A DNA stretch of 64,000 nucleotides from contig JBGAHS010000007.1 of the NCBI GenBank assembly GCA_044226015.1, positions 256,001 to 320,000 of the forward strand, written 5' to 3'. This DNA is from Candidatus Obscuribacteraceae bacterium. Lineage in GTDB: Bacteria; Cyanobacteriota; Vampirovibrionia; Obscuribacterales; Obscuribacteraceae. The translations under genes were made by a program, and so were the position numbers. Position 1 is the first letter of the stretch, and the number at the start of each line of letters is the position of its first letter. Positions 28,204 through 52,174 of this stretch are shown here, piece by piece. The notes beneath the pieces were generated by a model, which was not told the origin of the DNA, made no database searches, and saw only the letters and a list, made by a program, of their open reading frames with translations.

Positions 28204-28551
28204 CTATTCCAGGTCGGGCTTCTTAAGAATCTCTCCGGTTCGCTTTTCGCCGGAAGCGATACGCACCGTGTATTCGATGTCTTGCACAAAAATAAGCCCA
28301 TCACCAGGTTTTCCTGTTGAAACGGTTTTTTGAACCAGGCGCACAATTTCGTCGCATTTGTCATCAGTGGAGACAATTTCTACGCGAGTTTTCTCACTGA
28401 GTTCACCGCTGAGGTCCCAGTCTGATTCAGCTGTCTCTGTGCCAAAACCTCTGGCGGCGCATGCTGTTAGACCAGATATTCCTGCACGTCTTATGGCACT
28501 GGCTAAATAGTCCAATTTTCTCGGTTGGATAATGGCAACGATTAATTTCAT
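28204..28551 (-). CDS. PII-family signalling protein with atypical T-loop
   Basis: MKLIVAIIQP, RGFG, TGKPGDGLIFV, VRIASGE. Confidence 0.88.
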   Translation of the reverse strand: MKLIVAIIQPRKLDYLASAIRRAGISGLTACAARGFGTETAESDWDLSGELSEKTRVEIVSTDDKCDEIVRLVQKTVSTGKPGDGLIFVQDIEYTVRIASGEKRTGEILKKPDLE

Positions 28552-28605: not shown

Positions 28606-28932
28606 TTATCGTTTTTGCACCTTGCAGCTCTCGCTGAGTATAGCCGAATATAGCGCTAAAACGTTTTCTAGCAAGGCTGAGTTCGGCAGTTCTCTTCTTA
28701 TTCCTTCAAGAACACGCTTTTCCCTCTCCTCGTCTTTAATTGGAATTCCCATCTCGTGTTTCCAATTACCCAGTGTTTGAGCTAGCTCTAACCTTCTCTC
28801 CAGGAGGAAGCTCAGTTCTCGATCAATCAAATCTATTTCTTTTCTGATGTGTTCGATGCGCTTGAGTGGAAGTGAGGCTGGAACCTGATTTAGCGCTGTC
28901 TTGTTCTGCTCGTTTTTCGGTTTTGGCAGCAT
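28606..28932 (-). CDS. Monofunctional AroQ-type chorismate mutase
   Basis: IRKEIDLIDRELSFLLERR...K...D.ERE...SCKVQ. Confidence 0.88.
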   Translation of the reverse strand: MLPKPKNEQNKTALNQVPASLPLKRIEHIRKEIDLIDRELSFLLERRLELAQTLGNWKHEMGIPIKDEEREKRVLEGIRRELPNSALLENVLALYSAILSESCKVQKR

Positions 28933-28936
28933 TGTT

Positions 28937-29842
28937 TTATCCTCTCGAAACGCAAGAACGTTGAATTCTGTTTGGGTGAATTGAGATTATTTGGGAGTTG
29001 TTCATAGCACTGTATTTTTCGTGCATTGAACGACCCAATGCGGCTGCCAACGGTTTTAGTGATCTGACAAGGGCTTCCATTTCATCCAGCGATAACGCTT
29101 GTCTTGCGTCAGAAACTGACTTGGAAGGTTCTGGATGGCATTCGATTATGAGTCCATCGGCACCGCTGGCGATGGCAGCTTTGGATAAGCCTGCAACCAA
29201 TTCGCTTTTGCCGCATGCATGGCTGGGGTCTACAATAACTGGAAGGTGAGTGATTTGTTTGAGTGCGACGACAGCGCCTAAATCGAGAACATTTCTTGTG
29301 TAATTATCGAAGCTTCTTATACCGCGTTCGCACAAGATTACATCCGGATTGCCGTGGCTTACGATGTATTCTGCCGCGAGAACGAACTCTTCGATGCTGG
29401 CACAAAGTCCGCGTTTCAATAGAACCGGTTTTCCTGCTTGTCCTAAAGCTTTTAGCAAATCGAAGTTTTGCATGTTTCTACTTCCAATTTGCAATATGTC
29501 AGCTGTTTTTACAAGGCTGCTGATTTGATCTTGAGACATGACTTCCGTAATGACAGGAATTCCATAGTCATCTTTGATTTTCTGCAGAATGCTGATGCCT
29601 TCTTCTCCGAGTCCCTGAAAGCTGTAAGGCGAAGTGCGAGGCTTGTACACACCACCACGAATCATCTGCACGGTTTGATGGAGGCGATTTGCCACTGCAT
29701 CCATTTGCTCTTGATTTTCGACGGCACACGGACCCCCGATGATTAGTAATTTATTGGAACCTACGGAAACTTTCTCGGAAATTTTTATTACTGTTGTTTG
29801 CTGCTCTGCAGACTGTTTTCTGACCAATTTTGCATCTAACAT
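28937..29842 (-). CDS. aroF: DAHP synthase, class I-beta, lacking an N-terminal regulatory domain
   Basis: GGPCAVE, KPRTSPYSFQG, QIGSRNMQNF, LCERGIR, DPSH. Confidence 0.95.
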   Translation of the reverse strand: MLDAKLVRKQSAEQQTTVIKISEKVSVGSNKLLIIGGPCAVENQEQMDAVANRLHQTVQMIRGGVYKPRTSPYSFQGLGEEGISILQKIKDDYGIPVITEVMSQDQISSLVKTADILQIGSRNMQNFDLLKALGQAGKPVLLKRGLCASIEEFVLAAEYIVSHGNPDVILCERGIRSFDNYTRNVLDLGAVVALKQITHLPVIVDPSHACGKSELVAGLSKAAIASGADGLIIECHPEPSKSVSDARQALSLDEMEALVRSLKPLAAALGRSMHEKYSAMNNSQIISIHPNRIQRSCVSRG

Positions 29843-29923
29843 GACGACTCCTTAGAACAATGTGAATCTTGCGAGGTCCCTGATACTCATGACCCCGCGT
29901 TGCCGATTTGTGCCTGAAATCAA

Positions 29924-29980
29924 CTAAGCTAGGGGAACCTGGCTAAAGAAAAATTCGAAGCTAAAAAACTGTTTTTGCAT
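29924..29980 (-). CDS. Phe-rich leader peptide 2 (MQKQFFSFEFFFSQVPLA)
   Basis: 6 Phe in 8 codons; AGGGA RBS; ends 81 nt before the aroF start. Confidence 0.8.
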   Translation of the reverse strand: MQKQFFSFEFFFSQVPLA

Positions 29981-29991
29981 AACATCCCTAT

Positions 29992-30025
29992 TAAACGAAA
30001 AGACCGCAGCTAACGACTGCGGTCC
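29992..30025 (-). terminator. Attenuator terminator of leader 1
   Basis: GACCGCAG-tcgttag-CTGCGGTC followed by TTTTCGTTT on the minus strand. Confidence 0.88.
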
Positions 30026-30048
30026 ACCTGGTGCCTTGAGTTGCTAAC

Positions 30049-30102
30049 TCAGTCCAAGTGAACCTCAATAAAGAAAAAGAAAAAAGGAATTGGGCGTTTC
30101 AT
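30049..30102 (-). CDS. Phe-rich leader peptide 1 (MKRPIPFFFFFIEVHLD), pheL-like
   Basis: 5 consecutive Phe codons; overlaps the antiterminator arm; lies between promoter and terminator. Confidence 0.85.
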   Translation of the reverse strand: MKRPIPFFFFFIEVHLD

Positions 30103-30129
30103 TCGTTTTACTGGTGTAGTGATGCAACC

Positions 30130-30158
30130 ATGCTAATTCTAGAATGCCTTATGGTCAA
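30130..30158 (-). promoter_or_regulatory. Sigma-70 promoter of the attenuated aroF operon
   Basis: TTGACC-N17-TAGCAT. Confidence 0.7.
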
Positions 30159-30425: not shown

Positions 30426-30884
30426 ATGAAAGTAATGCTTGCCGTCGATGATTCTGACCACTCGGAATATGCGCTTGAATCAGTGTTGAAACGCCCCTGG
30501 AGTCCAGGCACGCAGTTCCTGGTTTTTATGGTCTGCGAACCCTATCATCCCGATTTTGCTGGATGGGACGAGCATGCTGTTGAACAAGCAAAACAATATG
30601 CTAAGCGTTTAGAATCCACAGCAACGTCTTACGTGACAAAGTGCGCCGACCGCATCAAGCAAACGATCACTGATTGCTCGGTTGAGTCAGAGGTGGTTGA
30701 AAGTGGGCGAATCAAAGAGACGATCATTCAAACAGCGAGCAATTGGTCGGCAGATTTGATAGTAATGGGTTCTCACGGACGAACAGGGCTTGAGCGCTTC
30801 CTTTTAGGCAGCGTGTCTCAGGCAGTGGTGTCACATGCACCATGCTCGGTCGAAATAGTTAAGCGGTCTGGCGGGTCTGTCTGA
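30426..30884 (+). CDS. Universal stress protein
   Basis: VMLAVDDS, LIVMGSHGRTG...LGSVS...HAPCSV. Confidence 0.95.
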   Translation: MKVMLAVDDSDHSEYALESVLKRPWSPGTQFLVFMVCEPYHPDFAGWDEHAVEQAKQYAKRLESTATSYVTKCADRIKQTITDCSVESEVVESGRIKETIIQTASNWSADLIVMGSHGRTGLERFLLGSVSQAVVSHAPCSVEIVKRSGGSV

Positions 30885-52100: not shown

Positions 52101-52174
52101 TCGGGGCGAGAGGATTTGAACCTCCGGCCTTCCGCACCCGAAACGGACACGCTACCAAGCTGCGCTACGCCCCG
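52101..52174 (-). tRNA. tRNA-Pro(CGG), CCA not encoded
   Basis: CGGGGCG acceptor stem, D-loop TGGTA, anticodon arm TCCGT-TTCGGGT-GCGGA, T-arm GGTTCAAATCC. Confidence 0.97.

Follow-up and report, generated by a model that had tools for sequence, protein, structure and literature searches.

A predicted phenylalanine-responsive tandem-leader attenuator upstream of aroF in Obscuribacteraceae, and the likely division of aromatic amino acid sensing between gene copies

We analysed a 64,000-nucleotide stretch of DNA (the window) from a Candidatus Obscuribacteraceae bacterium. The leader of its aroF operon is very probably a ribosome-dependent transcription attenuator, which would allow read-through into aroF-chorismate mutase when charged tRNA-Phe is low; within a conserved family with two leaders it is the Phe-rich member, and its second stage is likely decayed in this genome. 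Judged by leader codons, the family is pan-aromatic, and the window copy is Phe-specialised beside a Tyr-specialised paralog.

Results

Layout of the leader and operon

All elements lie on the minus strand, where the positions given in an initial annotation for the promoter, both leader ORFs, the terminator and aroF were borne out. A sigma-70-type promoter-like site (TTGACC-N17-TAGCAT, 30130–30158), identified by sequence match, has counterparts upstream of 83 of the 86 homologous leaders, against 1.9 expected. The first leader ORF, uORF1 (MKRPIPFFFFFIEVHLD; 30049–30102), contains five Phe codons (30084–30070) and has no Shine-Dalgarno sequence (duplex energy, +0.6 kcal/mol). Its 3′ end holds the 5′ strand of a putative antiterminator (30054–30064), which is followed by a 6-bp hairpin in the antiterminator loop (30037–30051), the 3′ strand (30021–30031), whose final five nucleotides form the base of the terminator 5′ arm, and the intrinsic terminator of unit 1 (29992–30025), a 10-bp stem (30025–30001) with a U-rich tail. 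The second leader ORF, uORF2 (MQKQFFSFEFFFSQVPLA; 29924–29980), has six Phe codons and, as annotated, a ribosome-binding site of its own, the moderate Shine-Dalgarno-like AGGGA (29985–29989; duplex energy, −5.7 kcal/mol). Downstream of it are the unit 2 hairpin (29871–29898), which lacks a U-tract and is likely a decayed second terminator, and the aroF Shine-Dalgarno sequence AAGGAG (29848–29853).

The aroF gene (28937–29842), the first in aromatic amino acid biosynthesis, encodes a type I-beta DAHP synthase that has PF00793 and lacks the N-terminal ferredoxin-like regulatory domain (PF18152). It is followed by a gene for a monofunctional chorismate mutase (AroQ, 28606–28932) without a prephenate dehydrogenase domain, and by a P-II-family protein gene (28204–28551) that is likely the third gene of the operon. 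P-II-family genes lie 3′ of the Phe-type copies L001, L002, L004 and L198, and none was seen behind the others; the protein might act as a regulatory partner of the DAHP synthase. A divergent universal stress protein gene (30426–30884) has equivalents upstream of aroF in several family loci. The leader matched none of the curated Rfam covariance models, and the sole Rfam match within the window was a tRNA gene (52101–52174).

Unit 1 as a switch

At the level of sequence, unit 1 combines clustered cognate codons, an intrinsic terminator and a mutually exclusive predicted antiterminator. We aligned 68 distinct unit-1 sequences, 44 rows of which were retrieved by a pattern spanning the helix cores; such retrieval inflates conservation in the cores, and the strongest covariation is that in columns outside the pattern. 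In this alignment, 91.2% of antiterminator cells were paired, with two-sided changes in nine of 12 pairs, and none of 500 shuffles reached as high. For the unit 1 terminator, 97.1% of cells were paired and six of nine pairs had changed on both sides. No shuffle or slide of the alignment matched the covariation values of the antiterminator and terminator.

The window antiterminator comprises 11 bp (30064–30054 with 30031–30021), including two G-U pairs. This much had been annotated correctly; the further claim that it includes the 5′ arm of the terminator holds for the bottom five nucleotides (GGACC) and not for the whole arm. The 6-bp hairpin described in its loop is present, and the sequence of that hairpin is not conserved in the alignment. 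In 93 distinct loci, the control codons are concentrated in the interval between 26 and 8 nt 5′ of the antiterminator; the leader stop codon falls 13 nt inside the antiterminator in 90 of these loci. An aromatic-rich ORF with an in-frame start was found in all 95 loci that have both the unit-1 motif and aroF. Read in the leader frame, the sequences contain 262 Tyr and Trp codons and no in-frame stop, compared with counts of 4 and 31 for such codons when the other frames are read; since these codons are frame-specific, the leader signal is not mere U-richness.

The unit-1 region folds with a z-score of −3.9 (one of 200 shuffles was as good). In constrained folding of the nascent window RNA, the probability of the antiterminator was 1.0 with the ribosome at codons 7–9 and 0 when it sat on the stop codon; it was also 1.0 on nascent transcripts without a ribosome, a folding result for the window sequence only. 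On the finished transcript the two folds were nearly equal in energy (−27.4 versus −26.8 kcal/mol), so the switch would have to be kinetic, set by the order of synthesis. There, the base of the terminator had a probability of 0.74–0.8 even when the antiterminator strand was free. The protector (1:2) hairpin was absent from folds of the window sequence, and an untranslated leader is therefore predicted to read through. Covariation, spacing and constrained folding all agree with the mutual exclusion of antiterminator and terminator that had been annotated and, taken with the codons, support a Phe-sensing leader-peptide attenuator. The case for reading unit 1 as an attenuator, as far as sequence can make it, is strong.

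Distribution in the family and phylum

Our same-family sample comprised 104 genomes, 74 of which contained the aroF clade at E ≤ 1e-95; these matches plus L021 gave 103 family loci. Leader 1 was identified in 86 of them and leader 2 in 76; 72 loci had the two together and 13 had none. The leader counts are lower bounds, because the rules missed leaders in L020, L264, L266 and L235. Of the 13 loci without a leader, 11 group in a clade of their own; in another the upstream region is just 41 nt long, and the last lies directly 3′ of another gene. The members of that clade (L248–L251, L253 and L258–L263) are short DAHP synthases found alongside attenuated copies, and a conserved block containing short ORFs lies upstream of several of them.

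Among 150 genomes sampled evenly across the phylum, 20 belonging to other classes contained the aroF clade (62–73% identity). Every one of these 20 loci, located protein-first, had at least one leader (18 both, one unit 1 only, one unit 2 only). The unit-1 covariance model gave a match beside aroF in 19 of the 20, and also found one broken copy and three weak matches. The broken copy (L185; G088:C49:74017–74154), in a genome from another class, has unit 1 joined to an aroF fragment by an apparent deletion. A pattern scan of GTDB genomes returned at least 119 stretches; among the 80 matches listed, aroF was downstream in 71, three ended too soon and six were chance. Most of the listed matches bear titles of oxygenic cyanobacteria, among them Nostoc, Calothrix and Leptolyngbyaceae. 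The tandem layout first described from the window thus recurs in 72 of 103 family loci and 18 of 20 other-class loci, and comparison of these sequences supports its being conserved, not accidental.

The N-terminal ferredoxin-like domain of DAHP synthase mediates feedback. It was present in the leaderless paralog L037 and absent from the four attenuated enzymes scanned. The distant DAHP synthases L022–L030 and L037 (46–51% identity) had no such leader. No trp genes were found within about 10 kb downstream in eight other-class loci (by ORF starts and two Pfam scans), and a link to the Nostoc trp/aro supraoperon was rejected on that basis.

Unit 2 in the family and in the window

In the family, unit 2 is a second switch of different sequence with its own antiterminator and terminator. 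Across 50 sequences, 84.2% of terminator cells were paired and all 10 pairs had changed on both sides; 81% of antiterminator cells were paired, and two of the five antiterminator measures were not above shuffles (333 and 305 of 500). A U-tract of at least five T followed unit 2 in 61 of 62 cyanobacterial pattern loci by a rough method, and in 43 of 75 family loci by another rough method that differs from the cyanobacterial count. On a similarly rough measure, 32 of the 75 family loci had no more than four T among the 8 nt that follow the hairpin.

A working switch with an intrinsic terminator, found in most relatives, was not found in unit 2 of the window, which aligns poorly with the family switch. 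The U-tract reported as missing is indeed missing, with 2 T in the 8 nt 3′ of the hairpin. Two competing helices had been proposed here. One of them, the rival hairpin (−13.5 kcal/mol), stands and forms at any ribosome position in full-length folds, whereas the other, AGGUUCC/GGGACCU, is weak (−6.5 kcal/mol) and has a probability of at most 0.01 in full-length models. This helix does form when a 116-nt nascent transcript is folded and the ribosome is placed at codon 8, and is gone once the hairpin is complete. The sister Phe copies L005 and L198 have an intact unit 2 terminator. Because unit 2 of the relatives is usually an intrinsic attenuator, the simplest reading of the window sequence is that its unit 2 is likely a decayed one. 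Both window leaders are still rich in Phe codons, and decay alone does not explain this.

The initial annotation had the second stage acting through Rho or translational control, and neither route withstood analysis. There was no Rho domain in the window's own genome (92% complete), and none of the 104 family genomes exceeded the PF07497 cut-off, with controls positive in nine of 14; Rho was rejected for these reasons. Occlusion of the ribosome-binding site was rejected because the modelled opening energy at aroF (7.8–8.6 kcal/mol) did not change with ribosome position. Nor could the annotated origin of unit 2 by duplication, suggested by shared AGGTTC and AGGCAC, be upheld: these hexamers are not family features, and the unit-1 model scores unit 2 at 16–18 bits, like an unrelated trpE leader (19 bits), so that unit 2 is not a detectable duplicate of unit 1. 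By eye, a GUUC..CGGG core is common to both consensus switches. Locus L014 (genome G008) has a tandem of two unit-1-type attenuators in place of one unit of each type.

Division of Phe, Tyr and Trp among paralogs

The paralog in the window genome (L036, contig G000:C9) has leaders ending RAYYYYWQMEVHLS and VRNWYYSYVYATRGSPG, both Tyr-rich and both with terminators, and its downstream gene is a chorismate mutase-prephenate dehydrogenase fusion (CM-TyrA). Lone leader-bearing copies, sampled in 56 genomes, have Phe, Tyr and Trp codons all present in 51 of 56, compared with four of the 34 duplicated copies in 17 two-copy genomes. The paralog pairs jointly cover Phe, Tyr and Trp in all 17, which represent five genera and are not independent. 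Alignment of aroF upstream regions had been proposed as a check for conserved Phe codons and helix covariation: the covariation was found, and the in-frame codons are conserved as aromatic and not as Phe alone, lone copies being mixed.

In genera g1 and g120, one copy has Phe codons and the other Tyr codons, alone or together with Trp; the division is Phe and Trp versus Tyr in g114, and Phe and Tyr versus Trp in g3. The CM-TyrA-linked copy was the more Tyr-rich one in all seven genomes that have such a copy; five Tyr-type copies precede a chorismate mutase without TyrA. Two copies in g1 are partly mixed; the Tyr-side copy of G006 is mixed, and the Phe-side copy of G007 keeps three Tyr codons. 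Lone copies were skewed in eight of 56, four of these from genera that also have two-copy genomes. Amino acid sensing is likely, on this codon evidence, to be divided between gene copies by way of their mRNA leaders.

At L020, L264 and L266, Trp-type tandem leaders stand before a divergent aroF paralog, and the sister copy has Phe/Tyr leaders without Trp. The history of the split was examined with quick SH-aLRT trees. A single Phe-only clade, a group named after inspection of the tree, was rejected (p-AU = 0.0001); neither Phe copies with nested mixed copies as a clade (P = 0.28) nor a single Tyr clade (P = 0.37) was rejected.

Other leaders in the same genome

A structure-first scan of the window's genome gave 509 candidate leader terminators, 21 of which came with a short ORF and an antiterminator. 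The four strongest of the 21 were a Met leader (cystathionine gamma-synthase), an Arg leader (argJ), the window aroF leader and its Tyr paralog. A composition-based leader scan gave 77 matches, mostly noise. The Arg-rich leader MKSVSYIANTNRRSRRVRMKDSGQ (L272; G000:C1:405537, minus strand) lies upstream of argJ and has a strong antiterminator and terminator; Arg-rich leaders were found in eight of 10 argJ loci, and to our knowledge an Arg-sensing attenuator would be unusual. The Met-rich leader (L273; G000:C7:258406, minus strand) lies upstream of cystathionine gamma-synthase (metB), and Met leaders were found in the four closest of 21 metB-like loci. A Ser-run leader, MDKFAHLQFSSSSSK (L274; G000:C8:646542, minus strand), precedes one serS paralog; all eight loci at ≥50% identity, of 19, had Ser leaders, and no run preceded the distant serS paralog. 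A Trp-rich leader, MNCQSLQFNWWSWSN (L275; G000:C7:767278, minus strand), lies upstream of a trpE-like gene, and the stem of its terminator is similar to the unit-1 stem.

The initial annotation knew of no peptide attenuation in this lineage; the conserved aroF family and the Arg, Met and Ser leaders suggest that it occurs there. In the same genome, only 16 of the 209 terminators have a stop codon no more than 12 nt away, which is consistent with coupled translation by the stop-to-terminator distance criterion given in the relevant passages of PMC7858274.

Discussion

We propose that when Phe is short, the ribosome would stall at uORF1 codons 7–10 and leave the 3′ end of uORF1 free. Before the 3′ arm of the terminator is made, this free end would pair with the base of the 5′ arm, and transcription would continue. 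When Phe is plentiful, a ribosome at the stop codon would cover the antiterminator strand and the terminator would form at about 30000. As the family default, two stages in series would multiply read-through and lower basal output, for an enzyme without a feedback domain of its own. After gene duplication, the control codons would have drifted towards Phe, towards Tyr with or without Trp, or towards Trp, giving each copy its own input.

It is improbable, though the likeliest of the alternatives we considered, that both stages work in the window, with unit 2 acting through pausing, weak U-less termination, RNA stability or hand-over of the ribosome to aroF. The six Phe codons and Shine-Dalgarno sequence of uORF2 are retained, as this reading would have it, weak tails are common enough in family unit 2 (the 32 of 75 loci counted above by a rough measure) that they may be tolerated, and the AGGUUCC helix does appear on the 116-nt nascent transcript with the ribosome at codon 8. 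However, that helix is lost after completion of the hairpin, the opening energy of the ribosome-binding site is unchanged and Rho was not found; moreover, unit 2 of the window does not align well with the family switch, and the terminator is intact in the sister Phe copies L005 and L198. Decay of the second stage is the reading we prefer.

There is a slim chance that the leaders sense general translation speed, or work by nascent-peptide arrest at the conserved EVHL end, and not through charged tRNA-Phe. A C-terminal VH(L/R) motif does recur across the phylum, but it follows the RNA helix, with His/Arg swaps accompanied by compensatory A-U/G-C pairs; in L035 the helix falls in a different reading frame, and in L005 the residues are changed while the pairing is kept. 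With these compensatory changes and frame shifts, peptide residues conserved apart from RNA pairing, of the TnaC type, were not found, and the control codons switch with paralog and pathway. Slimmer still is the chance that the U-rich stretches serve to pause the polymerase or to end transcription, the ORFs being by-products and a leaky terminator setting expression. Of 564 control codons, 244 are UUU, more than any other codon, yet the frame-specific Tyr and Trp codons, the fixed stop position and the in-frame start in 95 of 95 loci speak against U-richness as such, and the Arg, Met and Ser leaders have the same layout without being U-rich. Attenuation governed by charged tRNA-Phe remains the mechanism we favour.

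The E. coli pheL and trpL attenuators have a four-segment structure with a protector hairpin, which the window lacks in our folds. Unit 1 of the window has three segments in our models and, unlike pheL and trpL, its antiterminator is predicted to form without a ribosome. According to the relevant passages of PMC11802643, pheL-pheA and trpL share with the window a short ORF with clustered cognate codons and an antiterminator exclusive of an intrinsic terminator, and differ from it in having a single leader and controlling branch enzymes. The same source summarises the work of Neshat et al. (2014) on Corynebacterium glutamicum aroR-aroF, where a DAHP synthase operon is likewise under Phe-responsive leader-peptide attenuation; there, unlike in the window, one leader with Phe-Tyr-Phe is used, the enzyme keeps feedback inhibition, and no paralog split is described in those passages of PMC11802643. 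A predicted Phe-containing uORF and terminator also precede aroF in the Acholeplasma uORFC-13-1 motif, in the part of PMC8632094 that treats it; this is a single unit in another phylum, a prediction only, and is likened here by layout. An aroF attenuator of Shewanella is listed in a passage of PMC2659441.

Two short ORFs in one leader, each with alternative hairpins, are described for Salmonella mgtCBR in the pertinent section of PMC3641672, where the ORFs respond to two signals (ATP and proline), there are no intrinsic terminators, and Rho-dependent leader control is proposed. In the window family, by contrast, the two units have codons for the same amino acids, and intrinsic terminators are present in most of the family; dual signals of the mgtCBR type were not found, both leaders being Phe-rich in the window and both Tyr-rich in L036. 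Within the open literature, we found no report of leader-peptide attenuation in cyanobacteria or Melainabacteria. Nor, within the same literature, did we find tandem leader peptides that sense one and the same signal, or DAHP synthase paralogs specialised by their leader codons. A term search of the main texts of PMC4734099, PMC2965389 and PMC5314783 returned no relevant passage.

The E. coli enzymes AroF, AroG and AroH are, as in the window family, DAHP synthase copies assigned to Tyr, Phe or Trp, and they are assigned by allosteric inhibition and repressors, as PMC11802643 outlines in the passages concerned. In the window family, unlike in E. coli, the assignment appears in the leader codons, and the enzymes lack the N-terminal regulatory domain. 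Regulator-less DAHP synthase copies, each behind a tandem attenuator recoded for Phe, Tyr or Trp, probably rebuild the three-isozyme logic of E. coli wholly in mRNA, within a lineage-wide use of Arg, Met, Ser and Trp attenuation that is common to oxygenic cyanobacteria.

The underlying mechanism is itself textbook; the chief point of interest is that gene copies likely share out the sensing of Phe, Tyr and Trp. If true, classical amino acid attenuation would extend to the cyanobacterial phylum, and translation there would be coupled to transcription tightly enough to control termination. Since single, double, Phe-only, Tyr-only and Trp-type versions of the switch occur in nature, it can be tested what is gained from a second serial attenuator and in what way a pan-aromatic sensor comes to be re-tuned once its gene has been duplicated. 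The tandem would mark a likely control point for shikimate flux in cultured cyanobacteria.
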